From the IMG/VR virus record IMGVR_UViG_2740892559_000001, positions 6,625 to 70,624 of that record: DNA of 64,000 nucleotides; one strand, written 5' to 3'. The position numbers and the translations under genes were made by a program. The DNA is from a virus. The notes under the pieces were generated by a model that was not told the origin of the DNA, did no database searches, and saw nothing but the letters and a program-made list of their open reading frames with translations. Positions within the stretch are counted from its first letter, which is position 1, and the number at the start of each line of letters is the position of its first letter. Shown one piece after another: positions 7,915 to 56,810 of the stretch.

Positions 7915-8096
7915 TTGCTAAAAAATGGGGAAAATGCTATACTATAAGGAAGGTAGTGGGAAGGGATGGAACCCCTTCCCGTGCCAAGTATTGAAAAATC
8001 ACAGAATCCAATCCGGTTTTCGCATTGGCATTTTTATTTTAACACCTTCCTGTAGAAATGTCAAGCGAGGTCCCCAAACCTATAGGAGCTTGACAT
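7915..8096 (+). promoter_or_regulatory. Sigma70 promoter plus structured leader of GIY-YIG cassette 1
   Basis: TTGCTA(7915)-17 bp-TATACT(7938) with TG extension; hairpins GGGAAGGG/CCCTTCCC (7958-7980) and ATGTCAAGC/GCTTGACAT (8058-8096, overlapping AGGAG); second copy at 28937-29115. Confidence 0.75.
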
Positions 8097-8097
8097 T

Positions 8098-8952
8098 ATG
8101 GGTTTCGTCTACATGATCACGAATGACATCAATTCTAAAGCATACATCGGCATCTGTATCCATCCACCTGAGAAAACGAGAATCAAAGCCCATCTTTCTG
8201 GGCGTGGCAATCAGGGTATAGCCGACGATATCAATATCTATGGCAAAGATGCCTTTACCTATGAAATCCTTGAAGCAAACGTCTTTGATGAACTTCTGCC
8301 TGATCTTGAAAAGGCGTATATCGCCAAATTTAAAACTGTCCATCCGCATGGGTATAATCTCACATCTGGCGGTGAGGCTGCTAAAACGATTTCTGATGAG
8401 ACGCGTTGTAAAATCTCTGAAGCACACAAAGGTAAATCACTTTCCGCTGAACACCGTCGTAAAATATCTCAAGGAGGTAAAGGTCGAAAGTTTCTCATAG
8501 GACATCGCCGCAAACTCTCTGAAGCCATGAAAGGTGAAAAGAACCATCAATTTGGCGAAACGCATTCTGAAGAAACACGTCGGAAAATGTCTGAAGCACA
8601 GAAAGGTAAAAAAAACCATTTTTATGGCAAAACGCTTTCTGAAGAACATCGCCGTAAAATATCTCAAGCGAACAAAGGCCGAAAGCATTCTGAAGAATCC
8701 CTCCGTAAAATGTCTGAAGCACAAAAAGGCAGAACACTTTCTGCTGAACACCGTCGTAAAATATCTCAAGCTCTGACGGGTGAAAAGCACCCAAACTTAC
8801 ATCCGGAGCACATACGAGCGCGTAATTATTTCTTTTCTCTACCGTCTGCTATGCCTTTAAAAGAGAGAAGAAAGTTGCTCCGTACAGCATTCCGAAATAT
8901 TCATAGAAACACTATCTATCACTGGGTGCGCAAATGGACATCAACTGCCTAA
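8098..8952 (+). CDS. Free-standing GIY-YIG homing endonuclease with NUMOD3 repeats
   Basis: GFVYMITN...AYIG motif, repeated HSEE(T/H)RRK(M/I)SEA units, C-terminal TIYHWVRKW helix. Confidence 0.9.
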   Translation: MGFVYMITNDINSKAYIGICIHPPEKTRIKAHLSGRGNQGIADDINIYGKDAFTYEILEANVFDELLPDLEKAYIAKFKTVHPHGYNLTSGGEAAKTISDETRCKISEAHKGKSLSAEHRRKISQGGKGRKFLIGHRRKLSEAMKGEKNHQFGETHSEETRRKMSEAQKGKKNHFYGKTLSEEHRRKISQANKGRKHSEESLRKMSEAQKGRTLSAEHRRKISQALTGEKHPNLHPEHIRARNYFFSLPSAMPLKERRKLLRTAFRNIHRNTIYHWVRKWTSTA

Positions 8953-13196: not shown

Positions 13197-13985
13197 TTAG
13201 GCTTCCCTAACGCTAAATGATACCCGCCGTCCGCCGCCTTTCCATCTTGATAGGTATCGGATCTGTGTTTCAGGGTTGGGCCAGAGCGCAGGAAAAACGC
13301 GATCCGGGTATCGATTGTATTCTGCGGCAAAGACAAATCTTTTGTATCTCCGAATAAACGAGATAAGTTGATCTGTGAGTGTCTCTCGTGTCCCCTTTCT
13401 CGGTGACTGGAGCGTCAGGTTCACCAACCACTTGTCCCTTTCGCCCCCGATAGGTGGTACGTAAGAGAGCCGTTTGCGTAGATCGGGTTCCACAGTGCCG
13501 AGATCAAGAGAATCGTACTCGATACGGCTAAACCCGCCATCGGAATTCAGTGTGAGCAGCCGATCGAGAACCATCACCTCATAAATGCGTGGTGATGATC
13601 CAGTAAAGGTCAAAGTGATAGATTTCGCTTTGGGCTTCGTGGTGCTTTCGTCTATCCAGAGGTTGTGCAGATCGTGTTGGTATCCGTCAACGGTCGTAGA
13701 AACTTCGTCTCTCGAATCGTTTGTCACGGTTGCTGGTAGCGTGCGCGCAGCGGGACTGGTGATATTTTCTGGATTGGTGAATGCTGCAGAATAGCTGCTG
13801 ACACCGGATCCCTTCACAAAAATATCAGTAAAGGCGCGTGCATCACCAGAGCCATCGCCAGCTGTGTCGATATGCAGGAGCATCGAGGTCTCTGACGTGA
13901 AGGTGTTATAGTCGTTATCTGCTACGGCTTTATATTGGCTGCGTCCGCCGCCGTAATTCAGAGCGGGTAAAAAAAATTGCGCCAT
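13197..13985 (-). CDS. Distal tail (Dit)-like protein
   Basis: Position immediately before the hub gene; C-terminal beta-rich ...RRVSFSVREA ending. Confidence 0.45.
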   Translation of the reverse strand: MAQFFLPALNYGGGRSQYKAVADNDYNTFTSETSMLLHIDTAGDGSGDARAFTDIFVKGSGVSSYSAAFTNPENITSPAARTLPATVTNDSRDEVSTTVDGYQHDLHNLWIDESTTKPKAKSITLTFTGSSPRIYEVMVLDRLLTLNSDGGFSRIEYDSLDLGTVEPDLRKRLSYVPPIGGERDKWLVNLTLQSPRKGTRETLTDQLISFIRRYKRFVFAAEYNRYPDRVFPALWPNPETQIRYLSRWKGGGRRVSFSVREA

Positions 13986-14105
13986 GGGTGCACTCCAGGA
14001 AATGGTTATAAGTTAAAGAGGGTTGGGTTACAGAAAACCCTTCGGTGACGTGGACACCTCTTAACTCTCACTGCGAGGCAAACTTATAACTAAGAACCAA
14101 CAACC

Positions 14106-14187
14106 ATTATAATGTGGAGTGCGTGGCGGCTATAAGGGGAATTCAGTGGGAAAGCAATACATAAGTAATACAATAGCAATACATTTA
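14106..14187 (-). promoter_or_regulatory. Regulon promoter A (triple 11-bp repeat plus TATAAT) for the Dit-hub-fibre operon
   Basis: Minus strand TGTATTGCTAT TGTATTACTTA TGTATTGCTTT CCC; TATAAT at 14111-14106, 43 bp from the proximal repeat. Confidence 0.75.
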
Positions 14188-14529
14188 AGAAAAAGGGAAG
14201 GTTATCCGTGCGATTTTCTCTCACTGCGAGGCATGAAAAATCTTTCGGTTATCAGTTATAAGAGGTCTCTTAACCGATAACTCAAAGCGCAGCATACTGA
14301 AAACGACAACTCTTATAATGTAGAGGGGTTGGGCGGTTAGAATGGGAATTCGGTGGGGAATATATAGAATCAATATAGACTTGAAAAAAAGTGGATGGAA
14401 GATCGGAAGGATGGAAGGGTGGAATTTGAAGTGCGTACGCTTATTTGGACCACAATTTTCTTAGCTTAACATGAGTTTGATAAATAAGAAAAATCTTCTC
14501 GTCGTATGCACTTCACAGTGCTTGATAAC

Positions 14530-15288
14530 CTATCGGACAGAGCGTTTCAGGTCTGCCCACTGCGTTGCCAATTTCCCTTGCGGTTCAACCGGCAGGAACA
14601 CTTCAACGCTGTCCATGATCAGAGTAATCTCGTCTGCGTCTAATGCACGCGTAAAGACGGCATAATCGTCCATTGACCCGGCAAAGGTCTCGCCACCGGA
14701 ACCACCGATGCGATAAATGTCGTTCGCTCCATCGGTTTCCTGAAAGTCGGTTTCAGCAACCATCTCACCGTCGGCATAAATCTTGAACTTATCACCATCG
14801 CCTGTGACGGCTATGTGCATCCACTTACCCTCTTTGACGATGCCCGGTTCGGTCTGACACAGGACTGTCCATCCGCCAACGCGGCCGCGCCAAGAGATGA
14901 GTCCCTCGTCTTTGTTAATGAACAAAGTGTTGTGTCCGATGCCCGACGGTAAACTCCGCCAGATGTGTTCCCATGTGGTGCCTTCAAAGTTCGGGTTAAC
15001 CCAAGCAGAAATTGTGAACGGATCTTCTTTGAAAAGGTCACCATGAAGTGAGTCGGAGGTTTCCAGTTCAACATAGGCGGTTGGGTCGAGTTCAAGGGCA
15101 TCTCCGAATTTGCCGTTTACCCACCGAGATGTGCCTGTAATGTCGCCGTGGTTATCGTTTCCTGATGCGTCTTCCGTATCACCATCAAATGGGTAGTACG
15201 CCACCATATCCGGGTCTTCACCCGTAATCCCTAAAGTGGCGTTTATCAGTAGGAAGGTGACTGCCAAAAATAACGTCCAACGTTTCAT
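14530..15288 (-). CDS. Secreted LamG/concanavalin-like domain protein
   Basis: Signal peptide, VAYYPFDG, FTISAWV, WMHIAVT, GSMDDYAVF motifs; PVEPQGKLATQWADLK tail. Confidence 0.9.
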   Translation of the reverse strand: MKRWTLFLAVTFLLINATLGITGEDPDMVAYYPFDGDTEDASGNDNHGDITGTSRWVNGKFGDALELDPTAYVELETSDSLHGDLFKEDPFTISAWVNPNFEGTTWEHIWRSLPSGIGHNTLFINKDEGLISWRGRVGGWTVLCQTEPGIVKEGKWMHIAVTGDGDKFKIYADGEMVAETDFQETDGANDIYRIGGSGGETFAGSMDDYAVFTRALDADEITLIMDSVEVFLPVEPQGKLATQWADLKRSVR

Positions 15289-15555
15289 GGGTATCGCTCC
15301 TTTGTTAAAAGCGGTGTAATGTCTTTAAACATGATACTTGGCTTAGGATAATTAGGGACGGTTCGGATAAACTTGGACAGATCATTCATATTTTTCTCCA
15401 AATCATTTTTCGGGAACCTTCAACTCTCCTGACACGTCCTTCACGAGAGAGTTTATCAAGGACACCACGGATTAAGGTGTAATCTTGGGAGTCGATATAA
15501 CTTATATTTCTCACTAATTGTCCTTTTAGTTTAATATTAACATCACAGATAAAAC

Positions 15556-17634
15556 TTACTTCCGAATCAACATCTTCCGTGTTGCCGTGAAATCCCCTGC
15601 CGTCAACGTATAGAAATAAATTCCGCTTGTGACGGGTTCACCGAGATAGTTTTTCCCGTCATAGTAGGCAGCGCGGTTTGGCGTTTTATACACACCCGCG
15701 GGCTGATGTCCGAGCGGCAAGGTTCGCACGATTGTTCCTGTTGTTGTCCGTATCGTCAACACAACTTCAGCTGGCACAGCTAACTGGTAAGGTATCCACG
15801 TTTCTGGATTAAACGGATTCGGGTAGTTTGCAAACAGTGCTGTTTTCATTTCTGTTTTCTCTGACTTCAAAAACATCAAGAGATTTTCAAGGCTTGTGAT
15901 ACCTTTCTGGAATTCGATGGACCCGTCGTATTCTGTCCATGCCATGTCTATCCATTGCTGGACTAATTCGGGCGAGATCGGTGCGTCCGGGGTGTTCTCT
16001 ACGGGCGCGTTGATGTACTGTGCGACAAGGACAAGGTCATTGATATTGACGACCCCATCTTCGTTTACATCCACACTGACACGGCTGCCATCGTCCTTCG
16101 AGGCGAGCGGTGTACCAAAATAGAATGCAACCTCCAGCATATCAAGGATACTCACTTTCCCGTCTCCATTGACATCTTCACGGCGCGGGGGTGTCTGATT
16201 TTGGTATCCTGGCAGCCGTTCCTCATATTGTGTATCGGGGGGAAGTCCAAAGAAACCTGACCACCACCCCTCCTTTTCATAAACAGCAACTAACAGGACA
16301 TTATCTCCTGCCAAGAGCGTGATACTGAAACTGTCTTGATAATCATTTGCGTCTCTGTCGATAGCGTTGGTATGAACCAGTGCCCCGTTGAGCCAGACCT
16401 TTACAGCGTCAGAACTGCCGACAAACAGGGTCGTCTCTTGTTCTCGGGGTGCGTTCAAGAGGATGGATCCATAAGCGACGTGGTGATCCACATTATCTAA
16501 GCCTAAACCGATCTCGTTGACGAGTTCGTTGATGTTATTGCCCCCGCTGCGTGAGAGGTACCCCTCTGTCCATCTCTTATTCCCGACAGGATCATACCGT
16601 CTTGCCCCCTGCGTTGCAATCATCGCTTCCGTTGTGGTGCCGTCAGTGGCACGACTGAGATAATCTCTGCCGGAAGCCGCCGCTGCCGCCCCGGACACGT
16701 CACCCGTTGGAACGATCACCCATAACCAAGGGCCCGTGATTTTCGGTGCGGGCCGGACCTCTCCAGGGTTACTGAACGTTATGATATTAACATCTTTCGG
16801 CAACGCATTCAGCGGTGAGAAGTCTTGTATGTTATTATTATTGAGTTCTATCCACGTCAAGTTATGAAGGGTCGCAAGCGGCGAGACATCCGAAATTTGG
16901 TTATGTCGAAGACTCAAACGTGCCAACCCTGTGAGACTTGATAGGGGCGTGATGTCTGTAATTTCGTTGCCGACGAGATAGACCTCTCGCAACTGCGTCA
17001 TCTCTGCCAAAGGTGAAATATCGGTGAGTTCGCCGCCACAGATATCGAGGATACCGAGTTTCGGTAAAGCGGTCAGTGCTGAAAGGTTTTCGATCGGGGT
17101 GCCCCACGTATGAAGCCGTCTTAAACTTATCAACCCGACCAGCGGCGTGAGATCAGCGATCGGGTTCTCAGTGAAATGTATCGATTCGAGTCTGATGAGC
17201 CCCGCAAGCGGTGAAAAGTCCGTGATCGCGTTATGCGAAACATTCAGGTTTGTCAAGTTGATGAGCCCTTTGAGGGGTGAAAGGTCGGATATGTTATTAC
17301 TGTCAAGATCGAGCACTTGCAGTTTGATTAAATCTTTAAGCGGTGACAGGTCAGATATAGCGTTATCGCGAAGTTCGAGTCTATCCAAGTTCGTTGCAGC
17401 TGCCAATCCAGTCAAGTTGGTAATGTTCGCCTCCTCCGCGTCAAGCCGTATCAACGTTGCCATATCCGCCGCAGTAATAGGGTCACCGGGTGCTTTTTCA
17501 AGCACGTTTACGAGTGCAGTCTGCAGGTTTGGGTCCGGAATGTTTACGATTTGGGCGAGTATCCCCTGGGGTAAGCTAAAAAGTCCGATATAAAACAAGA
17601 ACAGGTACAGCCATAATTTCATGCGTTGCATCAA
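15556..17634 (-). CDS. Secreted internalin-like LRR protein with dockerin and C-terminal FlgD-Ig/sorting domain
   Basis: N.ISDLSPL..L..L LRRs; DVNGDGKVSILD dockerin; ANYPNPFNPETWIPYQL C-terminal domain. Confidence 0.9.
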   Translation of the reverse strand: MMQRMKLWLYLFLFYIGLFSLPQGILAQIVNIPDPNLQTALVNVLEKAPGDPITAADMATLIRLDAEEANITNLTGLAAATNLDRLELRDNAISDLSPLKDLIKLQVLDLDSNNISDLSPLKGLINLTNLNVSHNAITDFSPLAGLIRLESIHFTENPIADLTPLVGLISLRRLHTWGTPIENLSALTALPKLGILDICGGELTDISPLAEMTQLREVYLVGNEITDITPLSSLTGLARLSLRHNQISDVSPLATLHNLTWIELNNNNIQDFSPLNALPKDVNIITFSNPGEVRPAPKITGPWLWVIVPTGDVSGAAAAASGRDYLSRATDGTTTEAMIATQGARRYDPVGNKRWTEGYLSRSGGNNINELVNEIGLGLDNVDHHVAYGSILLNAPREQETTLFVGSSDAVKVWLNGALVHTNAIDRDANDYQDSFSITLLAGDNVLLVAVYEKEGWWSGFFGLPPDTQYEERLPGYQNQTPPRREDVNGDGKVSILDMLEVAFYFGTPLASKDDGSRVSVDVNEDGVVNINDLVLVAQYINAPVENTPDAPISPELVQQWIDMAWTEYDGSIEFQKGITSLENLLMFLKSEKTEMKTALFANYPNPFNPETWIPYQLAVPAEVVLTIRTTTGTIVRTLPLGHQPAGVYKTPNRAAYYDGKNYLGEPVTSGIYFYTLTAGDFTATRKMLIRK

Positions 17635-17681
17635 AAATTCTCCTTCTTGAGTTCGGCGCGCGTGTCCCGCGCGCCATCAGC

Positions 17682-20600
17682 TTATTTCATCAACAACATT
17701 TTACGGGTCGTCGTGAAGTGATCTGCGGTGAGTGTGATAAAATAGATGCCACTTGCGACAGGTTCACCAACATCATTTTTGCCATCCCAATACACAGCAC
17801 GACTCCGGGTCTGATAAATGCCTGCGGGCTGATGTCCTAACGCCAGTGTCCGCACCACTGTGCCATTTGTACCGTAGATTGTTAAAGTAACCGTCGCCGG
17901 TTTCGCAAGATGATACGGTATCCACGTCTCGGGGTTGAATGGATTTGGATAGTTTGGCAGTAAAGCCGTCTTTTCCGGCACAAAAGTAGCATAGAGTGCC
18001 TCAATATTTGCAATACCGCGCCGGAAGGTGAGCGATCCATCATCTGCAGCGCGCAAGAGCTCGAGGACTTCTTCAACGTTTTCTGGGGTCAGACCAAGCG
18101 ATTGCGGGTCCCCGAACGGTGCAGCCCCCGCGGTACCTTCACCGAGGTGTGCAGCGACAATCGCAAGGTCCTTGCCATCAACAACACCGTCGCCATTGAC
18201 ATCCGCGCGGGGGTTCTCTGGCGGTGATTGCCCCAATGCCGCGACCACCAATATAACATCCGAGACATCTGTGATGCCATCTTCATTGACATCCCAGGTT
18301 GGAATCGTGGTTTCATCGCCTTCTACAACGATGCGGAGCTCCGGCGGGATAGAAGGCACAGGGTTTCCGCGACCCGAACCTGCTTCAAAATTCTCCAAAG
18401 TCAACAGGCTTTCTCCAGCCCCGACAACCGTAAATGTTACTGAGCATAATAAGCCGTTGCCATCTACACTGTCTCCAGAGAGTCTTAGTGCCTTCAAACC
18501 TGTGATTTTACCATCGCTATTCTCAATTGTGCCTGCCTCGAAGTAGGTTTCTTCGTCCGATGCTTGTAGGAAATCGCCTTCATTCACCTCAACTGCGTTT
18601 AGCACGGCGGGGTTAAACACGAGATCTGCTTGCCAGCCGCCTAAATTTTCCATATTTTCGGCGCGGAGTTCGAGCGTAAACGTATCTTCAACCTCAAATG
18701 CTGTCGCGTCCGTGGAGAACACGAACCGGGGACTCGGCAGAAACACCTCATATTCGGCATCACGTGCAAATGCGAAATGTCCACTGAAACCGCCATGTCC
18801 GTGGTTGTCAATCGCAACTAACAGTACATTCTGCCCCTGTTTGAGCGTTACAGGGAAGAAGCTGCCATCTTGGTCAAAGGTTGCGTGGAGTACGGTGTGA
18901 ACTAACTCGCCATTCAGAAAAACTTTCACAGCGTCATCGTTGCCAATGAACATCGTCGTCTGTTGTTCGCGCGGTGCATCCAAAATGACAGCACCGTAAA
19001 CGATATGGTCGTAGATTTCGCGACCTGTTCCCCAGCCGAGAGCGTCTGTCATTCGGTTAATATTATTGCCCCCCGTGTCGAGTCTATGCCATGTCCAGAC
19101 ACTTTTTCCAACAGCCTTGCCTGCTGTCGCGCCGTTGGTCGCAACTTTTATCTCCGTCGCTGCGCCATTTGTCGCCCGCGACAAAAAATCTGTTTGCGTA
19201 TCAAGACGTGTACCCGGAACAATTGCCCATAACCACGGTCCCGTTATGTGCGCCCCCCTATTGGTGGGAAACCCCGGATTCCCTGTCATGCGGATAGCTA
19301 CCCCTTGCAAATCGTCTAACGGTGAAAAGTCGAAGATCGCATTGTTACGCACGTCTAATCGATGCAAGTTGGTCAACTCGGAGAGCGGCGATACATCTGA
19401 AATGACATTATTTTCAAGATAGAGTAAGTTCAAGTTGGTCAACTCGGAGAGCGGCGATACATCTAAAATGAGATTCGCATCAAGATTCAGATGCGTCAGA
19501 TCCGTGAGGTTTTCCAACGGCGAGAGATCCGTTATCGCGTTATTTACCAATTCTAACCATCGTAGCTGCGTCAATTCCGCTAATGCAGAGATATCTGAAA
19601 TACCGCAGCCGTGAATTTCTAACCGTCTTAACGCTTTCAAACCTGTCAGAGATGGCAGCGCTGTTGTGGACTTGTCATTGCCATATTCTATCCATCTCAA
19701 TACACGCAAGGTCGCCAACGGTGAGAAGTCTGATATAGGTGTCTGCCATGCATCTATTCTTTCCAAACTGGTTAACTTTGCCAGGGGCGACACGTCTATG
19801 ACAGGGTTGCCAGAAATCCCGATCCCTTGTAACCTTGTTAAACCTGACAGTGGGGCTAAATCGATAATACGGTTCTGTTCAAGTCCTAACCAATCCACTC
19901 GGATTAACTTTGCCAACGGCGTGACATCTGTGATCTCATTGTCGCGGAGCTTGATGTTATTCAACTGCGTCAAACCCGCAAGCGGCGATAGATCCGTTAT
20001 CATATTGTGCCGAAACTCTATCCGTTCCAGCTGCGTCGCGAACTCAAGGCCTGTCAAATCACGAATCCCTCTCCGATCGGCGTTAATATTCCGTAAGTTT
20101 AACATCTCTGCGGCTGTGATCTCTTCATCCGCTGCTTTCCCTAAACGTTCGGCAATAACCGCACGCAGATTCACATCAGGGATATAAAAATCGCCCACTG
20201 GACGCATCGGGCCCTCTCTATCAGGCGCAACATACTCCGGATTGAAAAGTGCAGCGCGCACGTCGTGAAAATTGGATGTCCACGCATCCCGTTTGACAGT
20301 GCCGTTCTCCTCGACAAGCGGTGTCAACCCTAAGTCTTTCAAACTCTGTTTCTCGCGTATCTCCGTGAGAAATACTGGGGTTTCCAACCCGACGGCTGCC
20401 GCAGCGGATGCGACATCCAGCGGTGCCTGAAATGCCTCATGAAACCGTTGGACGGGTTCATTTTTATGTCTCTCAAAGAATTGGTTGCGTTCCTCTGCAT
20501 TCGCAAAGGGCTCCCCAATTTTCGCAAGGGCACTTTCAAACCGCGCCGTATCCGTTTGCAGCAGCGTATCCAGAACGGATTGTGCCGGATAGAGGCGTAA

Positions 20601-21908
20601 GGCTTCTGCTTTATTGTAGGGGGGGTTTTGGTTCTGTTCTATCGCGGCACGGACAGAATCTGTAAAATCCTTCATACCTTCGGTATGGCACCCGATACAG
20701 GAGAGACCATTCTTAACAGCAGGATCGCTCGCTGCAGGATTAGAGACAATTGTTGTAGGTGCGACATCCAAACGATTTCCGACAGCGTCTGCGAGATAAT
20801 AGGCCTGTAGTCCGTTGGGTAGGTTAAAGATCATTTCGCCGCCATCATGGGTGAAGTTAAGGGGGTGTGTAAAGATATTCTGTGAACCGACACTGCCAGC
20901 AAAGTCGTAACTTTTCCAATACGCACCATACCGCGCGGTATGCCGTTCGACAACACGATTGTGATTCGAGACACCCGAATCGTTGAAACCCGCACGCCAG
21001 ACGCGAACCCCCGGTGCATTCCTTATATTCACGGCAACATTGACATCGAGTTGACGCTCTAATTCACGGGTATTCTGCGGCAGCCCTAAAATGTCATTAT
21101 AGAGCGGCGGCAAGGACGCTGTGGCTAAAAACCAATCGACATGCACAAACGGCGCGAAACTACCCGTTTCTGCCCGCAGGGCTGCCATCTTTTCAAGGCG
21201 ACCGGCTTGTGTTTGTGGATCAAACGCAGGGTTATAAGGATACGCAGCCTCTATTTGCGCCCAGGCATTCGTTCGGTCCCATTCATAATGACGCAGGTCA
21301 ATGTAAAAGATTGTCTCTAACGCATCTACAGGCGTGGGGTTGGTCACGACAAAACCCCAAGATAGACTGTTGACGAGTTTAGAAAGGGCAACACGATAGT
21401 CTCTCAATGTCTCAGGGGATTCGCCCGAATTATAAAGATGCGTCAAGGTAAAATAGCGCGCAGATGTCCTGCTAAGCGGATCCAGTCCGCCAAGATGAGA
21501 CGCGATCGTATCGAGCACTGTATCAGGCGCAATAAAGTCAATGGAATGCGATACATCCCAATCGGGTGCACCGAGTGCGATCCAAAGGGCTATTGTCCGA
21601 ATCGCTTCATCTGAGAGCGCGGGTAATCCCAACGGCATCTGTGGCCCCTTTTCCGTCTCACCGAGCAGACGTTTATAGAACTCCGATTCGAGCGGATTCC
21701 CCGGCATAACAACCCCAGTATTAACTAATGCATCACGGTCCAGCAAGAGATCGTCCTTAAAAGCCCCGGTCGCATCATGACACCTCGCACAGTTGGCTTC
21801 CAAAATAGTATACGCTTCCTGTGCGATATTCTGCTGCGCGTCAACAACGGATACCCAAAAAACGCAAAACAATAGAAATATCGAAAAAGTAAAGATGAAT
21901 CTGCTCAT
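17682..21908 (-). CDS. Secreted protein: cytochrome c domains (two CxxCH), LRR, cohesin, dockerin, FlgD-Ig/sorting domain
   Basis: CARCH and CIGCH; LRRs; GWQADLVFNP cohesin; DVNEDGITD dockerin; NYPNPFNPETWIPY; start chosen at MSRFIFTF. Confidence 0.85.
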   Translation of the reverse strand: MSRFIFTFSIFLLFCVFWVSVVDAQQNIAQEAYTILEANCARCHDATGAFKDDLLLDRDALVNTGVVMPGNPLESEFYKRLLGETEKGPQMPLGLPALSDEAIRTIALWIALGAPDWDVSHSIDFIAPDTVLDTIASHLGGLDPLSRTSARYFTLTHLYNSGESPETLRDYRVALSKLVNSLSWGFVVTNPTPVDALETIFYIDLRHYEWDRTNAWAQIEAAYPYNPAFDPQTQAGRLEKMAALRAETGSFAPFVHVDWFLATASLPPLYNDILGLPQNTRELERQLDVNVAVNIRNAPGVRVWRAGFNDSGVSNHNRVVERHTARYGAYWKSYDFAGSVGSQNIFTHPLNFTHDGGEMIFNLPNGLQAYYLADAVGNRLDVAPTTIVSNPAASDPAVKNGLSCIGCHTEGMKDFTDSVRAAIEQNQNPPYNKAEALRLYPAQSVLDTLLQTDTARFESALAKIGEPFANAEERNQFFERHKNEPVQRFHEAFQAPLDVASAAAAVGLETPVFLTEIREKQSLKDLGLTPLVEENGTVKRDAWTSNFHDVRAALFNPEYVAPDREGPMRPVGDFYIPDVNLRAVIAERLGKAADEEITAAEMLNLRNINADRRGIRDLTGLEFATQLERIEFRHNMITDLSPLAGLTQLNNIKLRDNEITDVTPLAKLIRVDWLGLEQNRIIDLAPLSGLTRLQGIGISGNPVIDVSPLAKLTSLERIDAWQTPISDFSPLATLRVLRWIEYGNDKSTTALPSLTGLKALRRLEIHGCGISDISALAELTQLRWLELVNNAITDLSPLENLTDLTHLNLDANLILDVSPLSELTNLNLLYLENNVISDVSPLSELTNLHRLDVRNNAIFDFSPLDDLQGVAIRMTGNPGFPTNRGAHITGPWLWAIVPGTRLDTQTDFLSRATNGAATEIKVATNGATAGKAVGKSVWTWHRLDTGGNNINRMTDALGWGTGREIYDHIVYGAVILDAPREQQTTMFIGNDDAVKVFLNGELVHTVLHATFDQDGSFFPVTLKQGQNVLLVAIDNHGHGGFSGHFAFARDAEYEVFLPSPRFVFSTDATAFEVEDTFTLELRAENMENLGGWQADLVFNPAVLNAVEVNEGDFLQASDEETYFEAGTIENSDGKITGLKALRLSGDSVDGNGLLCSVTFTVVGAGESLLTLENFEAGSGRGNPVPSIPPELRIVVEGDETTIPTWDVNEDGITDVSDVILVVAALGQSPPENPRADVNGDGVVDGKDLAIVAAHLGEGTAGAAPFGDPQSLGLTPENVEEVLELLRAADDGSLTFRRGIANIEALYATFVPEKTALLPNYPNPFNPETWIPYHLAKPATVTLTIYGTNGTVVRTLALGHQPAGIYQTRSRAVYWDGKNDVGEPVASGIYFITLTADHFTTTRKMLLMK

Positions 21909-21997
21909 ATTCAATAAACCTCCATTCTTGAATAATATATGAGTTCGCAAATGCTGTTTCAATCTCGCTGTCGCGGGCTTTTCCTGAGAAATGAATC

Positions 21998-22888
21998 CTA
22001 TTTCTTTGCCTCTGTTGTGAAATCAAAAATGCGTATAATCCCCCAGTCTGCGGGTTCCCAATTCCCTGCGGCATCTGCCCATCGGAGTTGTACTCTATAA
22101 CGCTCTTTATGCCGTAACCGAAGCCCTTCACCCGGTAATCTCAAAAGGATAATACGCTTGTCATCTATCAACATTTTCCATTTCATATCAATCTGGCGCG
22201 TGCGATTATAGAGTTTCACGTCTGCTCTATGAATAGCCTCATCAAAGTCAAATACAAAACGTTCTGTGTTTATAGGTACATTTGTCCCTCCATGTCTCAC
22301 ACTACTTCTGGTCATTTGGGGGGCTCGATTGTCTCCTTTCTTGGTTGTGAATGTAATTAGAATGGTGCGCATATTTCTCGCAGCGTCTTCGACGTCCCCA
22401 GATATTTCATATTGTCCGTCGGTTTTTAAATTAATCACGTTTCCCAGGGGCGTGAGAACCACTTTTTTGCCACTCACAATCCGTTTCCAACGAAGACTCT
22501 GTCTAAACGTGCTGTGGTTTTTGTGGATTTGGACATTCGATTTTGCAACATCTTCATCGAAAGTTAAGGTGATGGTATCCAAATGTATATCTACGTCTCG
22601 CGCACCGTCCGATATCTTGATTTTTCTGTTACCATTCGCTCCAATGCTTTCTATGAGTTTCGGACCAAAGATGTCAAAAACAAGTTCAGGTTCAGGTTCA
22701 TCTACAATAGGCGCGACAACAGGAACGACTGGATCTGGCTGTGGGACTAAAGGTTCGGATTGTACTTCTGTATTAGGATCTTCTATCAAGGTAGGTATTG
22801 CGAAAAGAGGTTCAGGCGTGCCCTTTTCGGTATCCGTCGCACAACTGATGCACGTTAACAATAAAAATATAACGAGTACATATCTCAT
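21998..22888 (-). CDS. Lipoprotein with two Ig-like (Big_5-like) domains
   Basis: LLTC lipobox-like signal; ITLTFDEDV and FVFDFDEAI repeats. Confidence 0.6.
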   Translation of the reverse strand: MRYVLVIFLLLTCISCATDTEKGTPEPLFAIPTLIEDPNTEVQSEPLVPQPDPVVPVVAPIVDEPEPELVFDIFGPKLIESIGANGNRKIKISDGARDVDIHLDTITLTFDEDVAKSNVQIHKNHSTFRQSLRWKRIVSGKKVVLTPLGNVINLKTDGQYEISGDVEDAARNMRTILITFTTKKGDNRAPQMTRSSVRHGGTNVPINTERFVFDFDEAIHRADVKLYNRTRQIDMKWKMLIDDKRIILLRLPGEGLRLRHKERYRVQLRWADAAGNWEPADWGIIRIFDFTTEAKK

Positions 22889-22897
22889 TCTGACTCC

Positions 22898-23596
22898 TTA
22901 TCGGAAATTGATCCCGATGTTGTAGATAACCTCGGAGGCCTGAAAAGAGAACCCGACACTTCCGATGATATGTGTTGTCGGTGAGGCTTGTATTTCAACG
23001 CCAGCCTCACCTGTAAAGAGATTGTATGTATCATCAACAATAATACGACGGGTTGTGGACGTATTTCGCCACCTGTTTGAATAGAAGACACCGAAGAACG
23101 GGTGGAATCCCCATTTTGTTGTTGTCCAGAGTTTGCCAATAACGCCTATACCGCCTGTAACTGTCATATTGATATAGTGCGTCGCCTCGCCATTTCTATA
23201 GATTTGTGAGTAGTGTGACTGGAATGCACCTCTGAGAAAATAATCTATTGTCTTTTCAGCGATCAGTGGTCCGGTGGCTGCTAATTGAAGTTCGACTGAA
23301 GGTGATGGTGGCACGTCAATTGTTTGCTGGTTTGGTATATTCAGGAATGCGATACCCGGTAGAAAAGAAATCTTCAATGTGGGGTTGAACTGGTAGTCAA
23401 GGCTTCCGCGAATATGGCTCACTCTAAACTGGTGCCGATAGTTGCTGCTTCCTGTTATTTGGGATGGCGGTTCGTAATATTGAAATCCTAACCCAATAGC
23501 ACTCTCTTTTGCGGGCATACTCAAAATCCCTGTCTGTGCGGATACCGGTATACAACAGATGAGCAGAATGAAATAAATGAACGATAAAGTTCTCAT
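22898..23596 (-). CDS. Putative outer-membrane beta-barrel protein
   Basis: Signal peptide, alternating beta strands, aromatic C-terminus YNIGINFR. Confidence 0.55.
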   Translation of the reverse strand: MRTLSFIYFILLICCIPVSAQTGILSMPAKESAIGLGFQYYEPPSQITGSSNYRHQFRVSHIRGSLDYQFNPTLKISFLPGIAFLNIPNQQTIDVPPSPSVELQLAATGPLIAEKTIDYFLRGAFQSHYSQIYRNGEATHYINMTVTGGIGVIGKLWTTTKWGFHPFFGVFYSNRWRNTSTTRRIIVDDTYNLFTGEAGVEIQASPTTHIIGSVGFSFQASEVIYNIGINFR

Positions 23597-23607
23597 AGTG
23601 CGAAGAT

Positions 23608-24402
23608 TTAATGTGGAATCCTCCCTAATCCCGGAATGATAGTCTGTCCATCTCTTTGAAGTATACCCATTAGTAATTTCTCATTGCGAGACAACTCTAA
23701 GAGTATCTTTGCGGGTCTGAAACGCATTCTTTGGAGTTTGTCATAGAATGCACTATCAACATATCCTATTACCCCATCAAAGTAGACAACCTCACCAGCC
23801 TGTTTCTGCTTCTCCAACTCCCTATAAAGTAAATCGCCAAGCATGCCGCCGTCTGTGTAGTTATATTTTGTGATTGTCTCCTTTATAACTGACGCATAGC
23901 TATTCGTCCATATAATAGAGTCATCACCTTTCCACACCATGCCGTGCTCTAACTCTGGCATTGTTGGATCACCATACTTCTCAATGACTTTTTGGATTAG
24001 TTTTTCTGCGTTCCTTATAGGTAGTATGGTTATGTAGCCTGCGGTTCGCAACTTGTTATCCTTGAACGTGTAAATGAGTTTACATTTAACACCGTTGATT
24101 TTAATTCTGTAGACGAGGAGTTCTCGTGTCCTTTCATCAGGTCGTATCCCTTCTTCTGACAATTCAACACGTTCACGACTAAATCCCCACCGTGTTTTGC
24201 GAAAGTTGTAGCCACTCTCACCTTCAAAGAGGTACTCTGATAGTTTGTTGGGGTCAAGAGGTGGGTCTATGTCAGACATCCAATCAGGCGATACAGGTGA
24301 GTCCCATTCGGGAATGTCATCAGGCGGTAGTTGAACTCTTGGGGCACATCCCATATACAAGCAGAGTATGAGTGGGATAGAGAGCATTAGCAACTTTTTC
24401 AT
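23608..24402 (-). CDS. Hypothetical lipoprotein
   Basis: LYMGC lipobox-like signal; 264 aa. Confidence 0.6.
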   Translation of the reverse strand: MKKLLMLSIPLILCLYMGCAPRVQLPPDDIPEWDSPVSPDWMSDIDPPLDPNKLSEYLFEGESGYNFRKTRWGFSRERVELSEEGIRPDERTRELLVYRIKINGVKCKLIYTFKDNKLRTAGYITILPIRNAEKLIQKVIEKYGDPTMPELEHGMVWKGDDSIIWTNSYASVIKETITKYNYTDGGMLGDLLYRELEKQKQAGEVVYFDGVIGYVDSAFYDKLQRMRFRPAKILLELSRNEKLLMGILQRDGQTIIPGLGRIPH

Positions 24403-24428
24403 AAAGTTCTCCTTTATTGAGAATAGTA

Positions 24429-24686
24429 TTAGGCCAGTGGTGGTTTGCCATTTTTTTCAAACAGCAAATTGAGTGCGTCCCCTATTACGCGCTCTATGGA
24501 TGTTCCTTTGTCTGCAGCAATCAGTCGGACTTGTCGGTGTACTTCGGATGGATACCACCCTTGAAGGATTTTCTTGCCCTTCCGGGAATCTGGTCTGTTT
24601 TTGGGTTCAAGGCTTGGAGTCTCGTTAGGGGCCTCTGCCTGTTGTTTCTCGTTCAAGATCGTTTGTAGGCTTTTTGGTTGTTTCAT
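24429..24686 (-). CDS. ParG-like ribbon-helix-helix partition partner
   Basis: 85 aa directly after parA; disordered N-terminus, then ILQGWYPSEVHRQVRLIAADKGTSIERVIGDALNLLF RHH pattern. Confidence 0.75.
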   Translation of the reverse strand: MKQPKSLQTILNEKQQAEAPNETPSLEPKNRPDSRKGKKILQGWYPSEVHRQVRLIAADKGTSIERVIGDALNLLFEKNGKPPLA

Positions 24687-24687
24687 G

Positions 24688-25299
24688 CTACACCTCCAGT
24701 TGCTTTTCGACGTATTCGTATAGTACTTGTGCTTCGATAGATGCTTTAGACTTTGGTAGATATTCCTGTGCAGTTAGTCCGTGATTGAGGGCATGTACAA
24801 AGGCTACACGGTGACCGAATTCACAGGGGGCGCACTGTCCCGGAAGTGCTGTTCGTGCTTGGTTTCCGAGTGTTGTTCGGGCTGGAACGGAGTTGAGTAC
24901 AATGTGTGCGGAGACTTTTGCGATTTCGCAGATAGAGAGTGTTGAAGCGATAGCGTCTAAATCCATAATCGACGGTTTACACGGAATTAAGACAAGGTTC
25001 GCGGCGTTTGCTACATCGAGAGCGTCATGTCCGGCATTGGGGGGTGTATCAAGGATCGCAAGGGTTGCTCCGTTATCTTTGGCTGTTTTCAGCCACTGTT
25101 GGACACGGGATGCGGGTGTTGCGATGATAGCTGGTGATTCAGCGTCTCGATAGTCTCCCCATTTTGCCGCAGATGCTTGGGGGTCTAAGTCAATGAGAAT
25201 AGGCGTGTGCCCGGCTTTTTCTGCGGCGACCGAGATATGGGTTGCAAGTGTCGTTTTTCCAGTGCCACCTTTTCGGCTCATGATTGCTATTGTTTTCAT
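24688..25299 (-). CDS. parA: ParA-family Walker ATPase (short, type Ib-like)
   Basis: KGGTGKTT, LIDLDPQ, ILDTPP motifs; AAGGAAA RBS before MKTIAI. Confidence 0.93.
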   Translation of the reverse strand: MKTIAIMSRKGGTGKTTLATHISVAAEKAGHTPILIDLDPQASAAKWGDYRDAESPAIIATPASRVQQWLKTAKDNGATLAILDTPPNAGHDALDVANAANLVLIPCKPSIMDLDAIASTLSICEIAKVSAHIVLNSVPARTTLGNQARTALPGQCAPCEFGHRVAFVHALNHGLTAQEYLPKSKASIEAQVLYEYVEKQLEV

Positions 25300-25323
25300 G
25301 TTGTCTTTCCTTCTTTGTTTTAT

Positions 25324-25364
25324 ATGCAACGGTGTTTTATATGCAACATTATTTACAATGCAAC
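25324..25364. repeat. Three ATGCAAC direct repeats at 17-bp period upstream of parA (candidate centromere/operator)
   Basis: ATGCAAC at 25324, 25341 and 25358. Confidence 0.55.
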
Positions 25365-25408
25365 TGAAGTGCATACGCTTATTTAGACCACAATTTCGCA
25401 AAAACGGT

Positions 25409-25747
25409 TTATCTATTGTATTCCGACTCGGTGAGTCGCCAACCTATTCTCTGTTTACCTGATTTACTTCGCAAAGACTCAACCCGACCCTCATCTTCCA
25501 ACTTTTCAAGAATTTCCCTATGTATTCTACCGGGGGACTTTCCTTTTTTCCGTTTTTTCTCGTATGTTCCCATTTCTTCACCTATATATGTAGCCTCAAT
25601 ATATGCATGTCCACCATCCGGATCAGGTTTACACTTCTTAGGAGGAATGTCTACATATTCGCTCTCTTGTGCGTTCTTTAGAACATCTATGACTACGTCC
25701 TTAAGTAGTCCTATCGCTTGATCTGTGCGTAATCTTACGTGATCCAT
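25409..25747 (-). CDS. Winged-helix-like hypothetical protein
   Basis: 112 aa; IHREILEKLEDEGRV..GWRLTE resembles 57767..58054; GAGG RBS. Confidence 0.55.
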   Translation of the reverse strand: MDHVRLRTDQAIGLLKDVVIDVLKNAQESEYVDIPPKKCKPDPDGGHAYIEATYIGEEMGTYEKKRKKGKSPGRIHREILEKLEDEGRVESLRSKSGKQRIGWRLTESEYNR

Positions 25748-25796
25748 TTGGATTTACCTCATATTTGAGGCAGCAGAAAACTGCTGCCTTTTGTGA

Positions 25797-25913
25797 TTAA
25801 TCGTCAAATAACCCAAGTTGATCGGTTGTTGATTTGCCACGCGCAAGCGGTGTATCAAATTTGTTGATGTTCAGTGCAGAAGCAAACGTTGGGTCTTGTA
25901 CTTTGACGAACAT
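25797..25913 (-). CDS. 38-aa microprotein MFVKVQDPTFASALNINKFDTPLARGKSTTDQLGLFDD
   Basis: Manual translation (below the ORF-track cutoff); AAGGAG RBS 5 nt before ATG. Confidence 0.65.
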   Translation of the reverse strand: MFVKVQDPTFASALNINKFDTPLARGKSTTDQLGLFDD

Positions 25914-25930
25914 TTTGACTCCTTTTCGGC

Positions 25931-26026
25931 TTGACGTGCATCGGCATCGGTGTTAAAATTAAAATGCCAATACATCGAAATAGCCTTTCGTTTTTGGTTT
26001 GGGGAGGTGACCGCCTCCCCTTCTCT
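25931..26026 (+). ncRNA. Candidate antisense sRNA (about 25966-26026) with its own promoter
   Basis: TTGACG-17 bp-TAAAAT (25931-25959); hairpins CGAAA/TTTCG and GGGGAGG/CCTCCCC followed by TTCTCT. Confidence 0.5.
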
Positions 26027-26094
26027 ATTATAATCTATTATCTATTTTCACAACTTTTTGTCAAGCAACAATTCAATGGTCTTGATGCCATGTG

Positions 26095-28929
26095 TTACGC
26101 CCTCGCTTCTTGTCGGAGTTCATTTTGCAAATCAGAAATATCGCGCGCCTCCTGATCTCCGATTTTCAGAAAGACTTGCTGCGCCCCAAACGCCCGATCG
26201 GGTGCGGATGCGACGTTTGAGAGTAGGTTACTGATCGTATCTGTGATACCGCCAGCGAGGTTTTTGATTTGCTCCGGGAACAGGAGCGAAGCGGCCCCCA
26301 AAGCGATACCACCACCACCGAGTGCACTTCCAAGCCTACCGAGTCCTGATAAATTACCGAGTCCAGCAAAATTACCAAGACCGCCTGCTCCTACAGCAGA
26401 TTGTGCTGCAGAAATCTTTTGGATATTCGCTATCCGTGCGGCAGTCAACTGGTCATCAAGCCGTAATCTGATCTGATGCTCGATGAACGCCCTTGCGATA
26501 ATCCGAACCGACTGCCTTATAAATTCTGTCGCGACAGTTTCAAAACTACGCGCTCTGCCGGTCGCTAAATCCAAAAACGTATTAGAGACCAGATTGGTAA
26601 ATTGCCTATAGGACCGGACACGGGCATTGATACTCCGCTGGGTATCTCGCTCCTCGCTCCGTAGGACTCTATTCAAAAATTGCCTGCCCTGTTCGGCGGC
26701 ATCTTGGCGAATATCTAAAAGTGTGCGTGCCCCACGTGCTTGTTCAGCGATCTGGTCATCGATGTCAGCCCCTCGCACAATCGGATCGGGTATCCGGGCA
26801 TCTAAATCGGTCGCAAAGGCGAAGTTAGCGATCTGCCGCATCACATTCAATAAGCTCTGTCCTTGCCGTTCCGTCTCTTCAAAATCTTGTCGCAATTGCG
26901 AGGTGAAATTACCGTATTGGGCATCAGGGCTGCTGATAGATGGGATGGCGTTTATCTGTCTCGTGAGCTGGTCTGTGTAGGCTTGCCCTGCTTGTGCTGC
27001 AGCCTTGAAACCCTCGACTTCAGCATCAGAAACAGCGTTGGCAGCGTCAATCCGTTCTTGTGAGAGCTGTTGCAGTAACCGTTGATTTTCAGCGGTAATC
27101 TGTCGCTCAGCTTGGAGCCGTTGTCTACCGAGTTCAAATATTCGGGTTTGCAGTGTATTGTATGCCTCGGTGCCTTCTGTCTCTTGTGCGAGTGCGTTCT
27201 GGGCGTTCGCGATCCGTGCATTGTAGTAAGCGTTGCTCGCTGTAAGTGCAGCTTGGAATCCGGCTGATAGCTGTTGCGGGTTGATACTGATATTAAGTGC
27301 TTCGCGTGTATCTTCAGCATTCGCTCTGAGTTTCGCCAGCGTTAGCGCGAAGTTTTCAGTGTTACGTGTAGCGGTTTCCGAAGCCTTTGCGGTGCTTGTA
27401 TTCGCGGAGGCTAAAGCGCGTAAAGCGTTGGCGTTGGTTGCGAGTTGCGTTTGCGTTTCAGCGAGTGCTTGTCTTTTCTCTCTCAGCCGACGGTTCAGCC
27501 CTTGTACCGATTTCCCTGTGCGTTCGTCGATTTCGTTGGTGAGTGCTGCGATTTCTGTGTTGAGTGTTCTCGCTTGTGTTACCAGGGCGGCTTGAACGTT
27601 TCTGAGGTATTCGGATTGTGCGGAGACGCTCCCTTGTGCGGCTTGGAGTTTCTCCAGTTCGGTCGTGATTTCCCGATACTGTCTACCGGCTTCTGTCTCT
27701 CTGCCTCTAAACCTGAAAAAGTTTGTGCGTCCTTTCGCTGCCTCGTCGAGTGCGACTTTCTCCTGTTTCAGGAATGCGATACGGTCTTCAAAAGCCTTGT
27801 TAATCGTGCCAGCAGCCGTAGCCGTACTTAACGCAGTGGTGAACCCCTCAACGGATTGCTTAGCCTCGTTTGTGTTTTGAATGAAGTTTGTGACGTTATC
27901 AAAGAGTTCAGCGAACCCGCGTGCCGCGCTGGAGACGACCGGCAGGAGTCTGTCCCCGATAGCGATCTGGAGTTGATTGAATTCCTCTTGTAAGGCATCC
28001 ACAGAACGTGCGTAAGAATCGACGGGTGCAGCCGGGATCTCCTGCCGGAGTCTCGCAAGGATAGGTAACAAGAATTGTCCGAGCGTCTGTCCGGAGGCTT
28101 GGAATCTCTTGTTCAAGCCATCCATGGTGCCGTCGGTGTTATAGACTTCCTGTGACAGTCTGTTGAAACTGGGGATGAGTTCTTTGATGGTCGAAAAGTT
28201 CTCTTGCGAGATTTTATTTTCACCGAAAGCCTGTGTGAGCTGTAGCATCGCCCGCGAGGTATCCGCAGCGTTGCCACCGAGTCCGACGATGCTTTGTCCA
28301 AAAGTCGTGATAATCGCATCAACTTCTAAGGTGGTTGCACCTGCTGCACGGAGCGAGTTAGAATAGCGGATAATTTGGGGTGTGTTGAGGCCTGGGAGTT
28401 TTGCGATCTCGTTGAAATCCCGGAGTCTGGCATCTGCTTGTGTGCCTTCGATGGCTCGGAGTCCACGCAATAAGCCCTCCATTTGTCCAGCAGACCGAAC
28501 GGACGCTGCGCCGAACTCAAAGATTTCGCGTGCGGCGAGTGCTGCACCTAAGCCTGTTAAGATGCCGCGGACACCGCCTAACGATCTCGTGAAGAACTCA
28601 GCACCGTGTCCAGCCGCTACGAATCTACCGCGCGCATCTCGGAGCCTACCGTTTGTATCTCGCCATGTTGCGTTGGTACGGCGTGCGGCGTTTGAGAGGC
28701 TGTCTATTTGTACGCCGCTCTTTTGGGCTTGATCGCCGAGCCGGTCAACGTCTCTTGCGGTGGTCCTGGATTGGTCGCCAAGTCGGTCAATCGCTTCGCC
28801 AGCGTCGCGTGCCTTGCTGCGAGTGGTATTGAATTCATCCTCAAGCGAATCCACTTCCCGCTTGAGGCGCGAAAAAGCGGCACGTGCGCGTCTGTCCTCG
28901 ACATTGAAAACCAGGGTATTCGTAGGCAT
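26095..28929 (-). CDS. Tail tape measure protein
   Basis: About 944 aa, alanine-rich coiled coil; tape-measure domain (AMLQLTQAFG..ISQENFSTIKE); follows tube and chaperone genes; start MPTNTLVFNVED. Confidence 0.9.
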   Translation of the reverse strand: MPTNTLVFNVEDRRARAAFSRLKREVDSLEDEFNTTRSKARDAGEAIDRLGDQSRTTARDVDRLGDQAQKSGVQIDSLSNAARRTNATWRDTNGRLRDARGRFVAAGHGAEFFTRSLGGVRGILTGLGAALAAREIFEFGAASVRSAGQMEGLLRGLRAIEGTQADARLRDFNEIAKLPGLNTPQIIRYSNSLRAAGATTLEVDAIITTFGQSIVGLGGNAADTSRAMLQLTQAFGENKISQENFSTIKELIPSFNRLSQEVYNTDGTMDGLNKRFQASGQTLGQFLLPILARLRQEIPAAPVDSYARSVDALQEEFNQLQIAIGDRLLPVVSSAARGFAELFDNVTNFIQNTNEAKQSVEGFTTALSTATAAGTINKAFEDRIAFLKQEKVALDEAAKGRTNFFRFRGRETEAGRQYREITTELEKLQAAQGSVSAQSEYLRNVQAALVTQARTLNTEIAALTNEIDERTGKSVQGLNRRLREKRQALAETQTQLATNANALRALASANTSTAKASETATRNTENFALTLAKLRANAEDTREALNISINPQQLSAGFQAALTASNAYYNARIANAQNALAQETEGTEAYNTLQTRIFELGRQRLQAERQITAENQRLLQQLSQERIDAANAVSDAEVEGFKAAAQAGQAYTDQLTRQINAIPSISSPDAQYGNFTSQLRQDFEETERQGQSLLNVMRQIANFAFATDLDARIPDPIVRGADIDDQIAEQARGARTLLDIRQDAAEQGRQFLNRVLRSEERDTQRSINARVRSYRQFTNLVSNTFLDLATGRARSFETVATEFIRQSVRIIARAFIEHQIRLRLDDQLTAARIANIQKISAAQSAVGAGGLGNFAGLGNLSGLGRLGSALGGGGIALGAASLLFPEQIKNLAGGITDTISNLLSNVASAPDRAFGAQQVFLKIGDQEARDISDLQNELRQEARA

Positions 28930-28936
28930 TTTTTTC

Positions 28937-29115
28937 TTGCTAAAAAGTGGGGAAAATGGTACAATAGAAGGGATAAGTGGGAAGGGGCGCAACCCTTCCC
29001 GTGCCAAGTATTGAAAAACCTAACGACTAAGCTGGATTTCGCATTGGCATTTTTATTTTAACACCTTCCTGTTGAAATGTCAAGCGAGGTCCCCAAACCT
29101 ATAGGAGCTTGACAT
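28937..29115 (+). promoter_or_regulatory. Sigma70 promoter plus structured leader of GIY-YIG cassette 2
   Basis: TTGCTA(28937)-17 bp-TACAAT(28960) with TG extension; same two hairpins as 7915-8096. Confidence 0.75.
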
Positions 29116-29452
29116 GTTTATGACCCGTCCAACTTTCGCGCTCTCCGTTTCGGTGGGGCTTCAGCCCTCACAGGTGCACGCGCGTCTCACCGCAGAACAG
29201 CAACGCGGTTTTCGTCCGGTTCGGTATGAGAATCAGTATCTTCGAGGCTACCATTGGTGGATCTTTCCAAACTACGTGGATAACATTTACTCGAAAGTCT
29301 ATGCCAGGCTGAATATCTTCGGCGATCTCGTTGTCGGTAGAGGTGCATGGACACGCTTGGTCTGTATTAAGAACGGCAGACTGACACTGAGTCCATTCAT
29401 TTCTGAGGATGTTGTTTCCGCATCCGATGAGCGGTTGCTTGTTTGCCTGTAA
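29114..29452 (+). CDS. Hypothetical protein between the leader and GIY-YIG gene 2
   Basis: 112 aa; starts at the ATG embedded in the leader hairpin, with AGGAG RBS. Confidence 0.55.
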   Translation: MFMTRPTFALSVSVGLQPSQVHARLTAEQQRGFRPVRYENQYLRGYHWWIFPNYVDNIYSKVYARLNIFGDLVVGRGAWTRLVCIKNGRLTLSPFISEDVVSASDERLLVCL

Positions 29453-56659: not shown

Positions 56660-56671
56660 ACCTCATAAAGT

Positions 56672-56772
56672 TTGACTTTCGCCGCTGCATGAGATATAAT
56701 TAAAGCAAGCGGCGCAAGCCGTGGTTTTTCCGCGGCGGGGGACTCATTTAGCGGTGAACCCCTGCCGTTTTT
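56672..56772 (+). ncRNA. Candidate antisense sRNA (about 56707-56772) with its own promoter
   Basis: TTGACT-17 bp-TATAAT (56672-56700); CGGC-GCAA-GCCG GNRA hairpin; 9-bp terminator stem with a G.U pair followed by TTTTT. Confidence 0.65.
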
Positions 56773-56781
56773 CTTATATAT

Positions 56782-56810
56782 ATTATACCACAAAAACCAA
56801 TAAAAGTCAA
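56782..56810 (-). promoter_or_regulatory. Sigma70 promoter of the 56659-53282 operon
   Basis: TTGACT-17 bp-TATAAT with TG extension. Confidence 0.8.

Follow-up and report, generated by a model that had tools for sequence, protein, structure and literature searches.

A 38-codon open reading frame behind a portable antisense-RNA promoter cassette: probable by-product of a recombination joint in a phage cargo island

The 38-codon open reading frame (ORF) considered here lies in a 64,000-nucleotide stretch of viral DNA, the whole of which we call the window. Compared with related sequences, the ORF is an accidental in-frame fusion of two unrelated genes, and a homologue of it as a unit was nowhere found. 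We think it probable that the locus is a recombination joint, that the 38-aa product is a by-product of the join which selection does not maintain, and that the functional part is a promoter cassette, now heading a cargo operon of winged-helix (wHTH), parA and RHH genes. We would place this joint where a 12-kb cargo island borders on the tape-measure gene, in a tailed phage or prophage whose bacterial host is found in sponge metagenomes. Three pieces would have been brought together: a portable cassette (a sense promoter, a leader of ~100 nt, an opposing promoter and an antisense RNA of ~70 nt with a terminal GC hairpin), 20 initial codons from a small gene that the cassette formerly served, and the last 21 codons of a methyltransferase-nuclease gene together with the wHTH gene downstream of it. 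TTTGAT (Phe-Asp), common to both, would be the site at which the second and third pieces were fused in frame. The features of the locus, in window positions, are as follows.

13986..26094, minus: inserted island of 12.1 kb, separating the tape-measure gene from the tail gene after it
24429-24686, minus: gene for an RHH protein, co-oriented 3' of parA
24688-25401, minus: gene for a ParA ATPase, co-oriented 3' of the wHTH gene
25409..25747, minus: winged-helix gene, 112 aa, of the kind that usually follows the methyltransferase gene
25767..25790, no strand assigned: hairpin separating the ORF from the wHTH gene, terminator-like on the plus strand (promoter/terminator scan)
25913-25797, minus: 38-aa ORF, ending in DQLGLFDD (sequence reading)
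25797..25862, minus: codons 18-38 and stop, with QLGLFDD; corresponds to an N6_N4 methyltransferase-nuclease fusion gene at its very 3' end
25854..25913, minus: codons 1-20, sharing homology with the first codons of the 78-aa ORF of related genome G078
25919..25924, minus: ribosome binding site (RBS) AAGGAG, 5 nt 5' of the ORF ATG (sequence reading)
25931..25959, plus: putative antisense promoter TTGACG-17-TAAAAT, TG-extended, 10/12
25960..26037, plus: candidate antisense sRNA of ~70 nt, fully complementary to the sense leader (model R1, 62.1 bits, E 9e-15)
26001..26020, no strand assigned: GC-rich hairpin, a terminator-like stem in the plus antisense RNA and a 5' stem-loop in the minus sense leader
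26037..26064, minus: putative sense promoter TTGACA-16-GATAAT, 11/12; the block is kept in the copies of G102, G095 and G153

As a description of the letters, a preliminary description of this locus holds up well. The ORF, its AAGGAG and its DQLGLFDD end are present, and the scan recovered both the minus-strand promoter (11/12) and the convergent plus-strand promoter (10/12, with the TG extension) that had been claimed. The two-hairpin plus-strand RNA said to oppose the leader folds accordingly (~69 nt, -23.1 kcal/mol, z = -3.7), and to the neighbouring wHTH and parA genes an RHH gene can be added. The gap between ORF and wHTH gene is 49 nt, and the scan of the window found no minus-strand terminator in it; since the hairpin at 25767-25790 has no U-tract on the minus strand, read-through into the wHTH gene is expected. 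The wHTH protein gives weak MarR/PadR-like winged-helix matches and a structure model with a pLDDT of 79; a comparison with viral contigs returned no relative of it. An Rfam search across 24000-27000 gave no relevant match.

The chimeric nature of the ORF emerged from a six-frame homology search of 159 genomes of the same order, which returned two kinds of match. Residues ~6-38 match the C-terminus of a methyltransferase of G098 (483 aa, within a 535-aa open frame; E 4e-9), and further tail matches occur in G036 and in 13 identical copies in G145. These parent proteins belong to Pfam N6_N4_Mtase (PF01555, E 4e-45) and also show a weak match to the nuclease family Mrr_cat. From Lys18 on, 21 of 22 residues equal those of G098, with about ten synonymous DNA differences; the changes are almost all synonymous, so the tail evolved as coding sequence within methylase genes. 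The other kind of match runs from residues 1-33 to the 78-aa ORF of G078 (E 1e-5 and 7e-5 per genome). Here 15 of the first 20 residues are identical at ~80% DNA identity, and the homology begins exactly at the ATG, with none upstream, and stops at codon 20. Both homologies meet at a common (K/R)-F-D, TTTGAT, which is the mark of an in-frame join at microhomology.

The 78-aa parent ORF is known from one genome or lineage only, on short contigs. We found no cassette 5' of it in the contigs that carry it, nor any relative of it behind the newly found cassette copies. Pfam and PHROGs contain no family matching the 38-aa ORF, which retains only the last 21 methylase codons and is thus a fragment rather than a member of the N6_N4 fusion family, whose proteins combine a methyltransferase domain (PF01555) with a PD-(D/E)xK-like domain at the C-terminus. 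The junction pattern N-I-N-K-F-D-T-P-L has two metagenome matches and one viral match, all of them unrelated chance occurrences. The preliminary description had proposed tBLASTn for homologues; the search of phage and plasmid records gave 0 matches. Its caution that QLGLF might have arisen by chance can be set aside, because the QLGLFDD end was inherited by descent from a methyltransferase tail.

The same descent is indicated by what lies downstream. On contig G128:C788, a methylase ending in QLHLFP is followed, after 49 nt, by a wHTH homologue, a spacing equal to that in the window; this methylase is open through its C-terminus, and only its last ~207 codons are present because the 5' part is off the contig end. 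In G153, a 16-codon tail remnant ending in QLELFDE stands 20 nt 5' of another wHTH homologue. These arrangements make the methylase-wHTH pair the ancestral unit, of which the window has lost all methylase codons except the last 21. Tail homology and the shared 49-nt synteny with the wHTH gene together argue for descent from a methyltransferase-nuclease. The G153 unit (L038 5527-6119, 6887-7555) is found between a HicA/HicB pair and a gene for an AlkB-like 2OG-Fe(II) oxygenase.

The bacterial clamp-binding consensus is QL[SD]LF; Pol II of E. coli ends in QLGLF and MutS has QMSLL. Clamp-binding pentapeptides reportedly stand at the C-termini of a range of DNA enzymes. In the 38-aa peptide, which is hydrophilic, QLGLF occupies residues 32-36 and would thus be an exposed terminal segment. 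To read it as a clamp motif is plausible on sequence grounds, and as such it would belong to the parent methyltransferase family. In the genus we read 25 distinct tails, from three sub-families with unrelated linkers; eight fit Q-[LM]-x-L-[FL], and 21 of the 25 fit Q-x-x-[LMI]-[FL] in the final 16 residues. The three types of tail end in QLGLFDD, QQKILFEA and QMQLLRG. QMELF, QMGLF, QLHLF, QMSLL and QMQLL are among the related tails. In the wider family (132 full-length representatives) the relaxed motif is present in 11% of tails vs 0.8% of internal windows, and the strict QLxLF in a single representative. The methylase tail motif is a candidate for clamp binding or for docking of another kind. 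We found no report in the literature of a bacterial DNA methyltransferase that binds the clamp or carries a clamp motif; the eukaryotic analogue is Dnmt1-PCNA (PMC9690074).

Some further observations concern this family and the clamp. The fusions at L003, L008, L028, L071-L073 and L117-L145 end in Q-x-x-(L/I)-(F/L) plus two or three residues. Contig G145:C1 holds the 13 identical copies of a 484-aa methyltransferase-nuclease gene (e.g. L004 1498-2952), and other genomes of the genus have 9-16 paralogues; the sequences suggest that the gene rides on a mobile element. The host bin (G000) contains five dnaN-like genes, on contigs C91 (a tandem pair), C168, C160 and C159 (L065-L069). One dnaN-like protein of 576 aa has an ECF sigma factor-like N-terminus fused to a beta-clamp.

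Natural variants show what has happened to the ORF since. Public runs that contain this stretch are mostly sponge metagenomes, and contigs of three studies cover the ORF at ~97-98% identity.

X1: ORF intact, one synonymous change
X4: ATG to ACG, Gln6 to TAA, Ser28Leu and two synonymous changes
X6: ATG to ACG, a 1-nt deletion at 25884 and one synonymous change

Two of the three variants thus lack the ORF start codon and have acquired either a stop or a frameshift, and the wHTH gene is open in all three. X4 and X6 share the ATG-to-ACG change, so a single loss event may account for both. One variant change, at 26010, falls in the loop of the GC-rich hairpin. Contigs from an RNA library (X8) cover 25448-25648, within the wHTH gene, and part of the tape-measure gene. 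A fusion whose junction pattern gave nothing but unrelated sequences in the metagenome and viral collections, and which is broken in variants, is unique and dispensable. Real toxins are also lost in some variants, so a past effect of the peptide is not disproved by the decay alone. With a strong RBS and an intact frame in both the window phage and X1 the peptide may well be translated here, but nothing points to a need for it.

Promoter-like pairs in the window alone are not above chance (4 vs 2.3 +/- 1.5 in shuffles), so the support for these promoters comes from their conservation among other copies. A DNA search with 25914-26094 gave a 126-nt match, 90% identical, in G102, and weaker ones elsewhere. 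The regions upstream of the two GIY-YIG genes of the window have the same layout as the ORF leader. We aligned 19 copies. Read in the sense direction, they contain the promoter, the GC hairpin, a stem closed by GCCAA/UUGGC, the -10 and -35 of the opposite promoter, the RBS and the first gene. The stem sequence of the GC hairpin varies among the copies and its pairing is preserved. The hexamers of the opposing promoter score at least 10/12 in 15 of the 19 copies, with spacers that differ in sequence and measure 16-18 nt (a single copy departs from 17 or 18). The first genes behind the cassette are mostly GIY-YIG endonucleases; the others are a 112-aa ORF, an MTNA... family, a PD-(D/E)xK protein, a zinc-ribbon protein and the 38-aa ORF, which makes at least six unrelated first genes.

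A covariance model of the antisense strand (R1), built from 17 copies including the one studied here, found 27 matches in 19 of 112 family genomes. Copies in G125, G154, G101, G078 and G140 are independent of the building of the model. Three matches are within the window: the candidate sRNA at the ORF leader, which folds into a stem-loop I closed by GCCAA/UUGGU and then a hairpin II, and two sisters.

7946..8035, minus: sister antisense RNA (69.9 bits), in the cassette of a GIY-YIG homing-endonuclease gene (8098-8952, plus)
28967..29054, minus: sister antisense RNA (71.4 bits), 5' of the 112-aa ORF and the second GIY-YIG gene

The fold favours the antisense strand. The consensus has 9 pairs and -5.2 kcal/mol on that strand vs 3 pairs and -0.05 on the sense strand. 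The closing pair is GC, GU or AU when read on the antisense strand and A-C in three copies when read on the sense strand, as a G-U pair in the antisense RNA would be an A-C mismatch in the other. Folds of single sequences point the same way in 12 of 17 copies, by a mean of -3.2 kcal/mol; the copies are related to each other, so such statistics overstate their independence and are indicative only. The G-U counts in the hairpin may partly reflect alignment register, and the case for the strand is made by the closing stem and the single-sequence folds.

At the ORF, the R1 match is flanked by the sense and antisense promoters, and an opposing promoter, a terminator-like hairpin and a strand-biased fold point to an antisense RNA gene that overlaps the ORF mRNA. 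The candidate antisense sRNA of the preliminary description, converging on the leader of the mRNA, has therefore gained in standing, with its promoter kept in 15/19 copies, its family present in 19/112 genomes and its folding biased to the antisense strand. On comparative evidence, promoter, hairpin and opposing promoter form a real, portable and reusable antisense-RNA control cassette.

From these signals we infer transcription itself, read-through and a regulatory effect. The sense promoter at 26037..26064 probably drives the ORF and the wHTH-parA-RHH operon. Transcription would start near 26030, yield a leader that holds the complement of the sRNA and, meeting no minus-strand terminator, run through the ORF into the three genes downstream. 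The opposing promoter, ~100 bp away, would produce an antisense RNA, from near 25966 to near 26028. Expression from the sense promoter would be damped because polymerases collide or the promoter is occluded, because the RNA pairs with the leader, or in both ways. Such pairing could lead to cleavage of the duplex or could block ribosome standby.

At 56660-56810, 5' of an early gene, there is another face-to-face promoter pair, with TTGACT-17-TATAAT on both strands. R1 has no match there, so it represents a different sequence family with the same layout. At 29114-29452, the 112-aa ORF, which belongs to no family, occupies the first-gene position between the second cassette and its GIY-YIG gene.

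The ORF and its cassette are at the tape-measure edge of the island, next to the tape-measure gene (26095-29007, minus). In the related phages G124 and G095, whose tape-measure proteins are 82% and 66% identical to that of the window, the tape-measure gene directly adjoins the homologue of 13197-13985. G095:C30 (L064 2933-3838) has a GIY-YIG gene exactly at the junction of the tape-measure gene and the next tail gene, and this junction looks like an insertion hot spot in the sequences compared. In X1 and X4 the final ~80 nt of the tape-measure gene (26075-26155) have given way to ~122 different letters, which makes a second variable joint adjoining the cassette. For the tape-measure ORF, the TTG start in the ORF list (29007) falls within the hairpin of the second cassette. 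In its relatives the start corresponds to ~28929 (MPNT...), and this is probably the true one here as well, which affects 28929-29007.

The preliminary description had proposed a type I-like toxin-antitoxin or replication-control module, in which a clamp-competing peptide is repressed by the RNA. A peptide of this kind, selected as a toxin or replication brake that competes for the beta-clamp and is held down by the antisense RNA, would account for the strong RBS, the intact frame and the C-terminal QLGLFDD. The conservation of this class of motif in the parent family also argues for a functional linear motif, a real antisense RNA gene seems to face the leader, and clamp-binding toxins are known, namely SocB (PMC9690074) and RipA (PMC12795458). 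Against it stand the chimeric and unique nature of the ORF, its disruption in two of three variants even though the cassette and the wHTH gene persist, and the hydrophilic character of the peptide, which most type I toxins do not share. An RNA cassette that precedes so many unrelated first genes is also no dedicated antitoxin. We consider such a toxin very unlikely, and both forms in which it had been proposed, the module of peptide and RNA and the RNA-repressed clamp competitor, are not supported, given the chimeric, decaying ORF. There is a still slimmer chance that two things are true together, namely that the tail is a true clamp motif tethering methyltransferase-nucleases to the replisome, and that the fusion peptide, which the variant in the window could still translate, has been co-opted as a competitor for the clamp cleft, dosed by the antisense RNA.

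The ORF might instead matter as a translated leader only, with ribosomes protecting or unfolding the long 5' region to the benefit of wHTH and parA, whatever the peptide sequence. The retained RBS, the short distance from the ORF stop to the wHTH gene with no minus-strand terminator between, and the intact frame in the window and X1 would suit this reading. X4 and X6 have lost the start codon and keep an intact wHTH gene, however, and the wHTH homologues of G153 and G128 do without such an ORF, so we regard it as unlikely. It is extremely improbable that the joint is an assembly artefact. The window does belong to a 78.7-kb contig of a metagenome-assembled genome in 178 contigs, 82% complete, and it contains the cassette three times, which can mislead assemblers. 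Yet an independent 1363-nt contig from another study (X1) runs from the wHTH gene through the ORF and the cassette into the tape-measure gene, and wHTH and ORF are joined on the X4 and X6 contigs as well. The recombination joint with its by-product peptide is the reading that we prefer.

If so, a candidate toxin-antitoxin system dissolves, and a convincing micro-gene, complete with RBS, promoter, functional-looking motif and antisense partner, can come from a recombination scar. The portable antisense-RNA promoter cassette is a new family, absent from Rfam, of a type of regulator already known. It precedes homing-endonuclease and other selfish genes in phages of sponge-metagenome bacteria. Should the cassette work as we suppose, selfish nucleases would come with a brake of their own, and the cassette could serve as a compact regulatory part. 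The large, multi-copy family of methyltransferase-nucleases has a conserved C-terminal tail resembling a clamp motif, and were this tail to bind DnaN, bacteria would have a counterpart to the coupling of methylation to replication by Dnmt1-PCNA.

The locus resembles type I toxin-antitoxin systems such as tisB/istR-1 and hok/sok in having a small ORF with its own promoter and a short antisense RNA that would pair with the leader upstream of the RBS. It differs in that the ORF is hydrophilic, chimeric, unconserved and decaying, and the RNA family serves many unrelated genes, mostly homing endonucleases. Its likeness to SocB of Caulobacter (PMC9690074) and RipA of S. pneumoniae (PMC12795458) is a peptide motif of the type that binds within the cleft of DnaN. 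In contrast to these, there is no protein antitoxin here, and the motif was inherited from a methyltransferase tail. Like the enzymes that carry clamp pentapeptides, the peptide has QLGLF followed by acidic residues at the extreme C-terminus; its parent, however, is a bacterial DNA methyltransferase, a kind of enzyme for which we found no reported clamp binding in the literature.

T4-like phages have free-standing GIY-YIG homing-endonuclease cassettes, the seg genes (PMC2988022). The likeness is one of self-contained promoter-plus-gene units between conserved phage genes, and a related phage has such a unit at the tape-measure junction, whereas the endonuclease gene is absent at the ORF locus. 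We know of no seg example in T4 with an antisense RNA gene as part of its leader.

Face-to-face promoters and countertranscripts act as switches in coliphage 186 (pR/pL), P22 (sar), lambda (OOP) and pCF10 (prgQ/prgX). Here, too, two good predicted promoters converge over ~100 bp, and along its whole length the short transcript would be complementary to the longer one's leader. Unlike those switches, the present cassette is absent from Rfam and unlinked to an immunity repressor, and it is mobile, reused in front of different genes.
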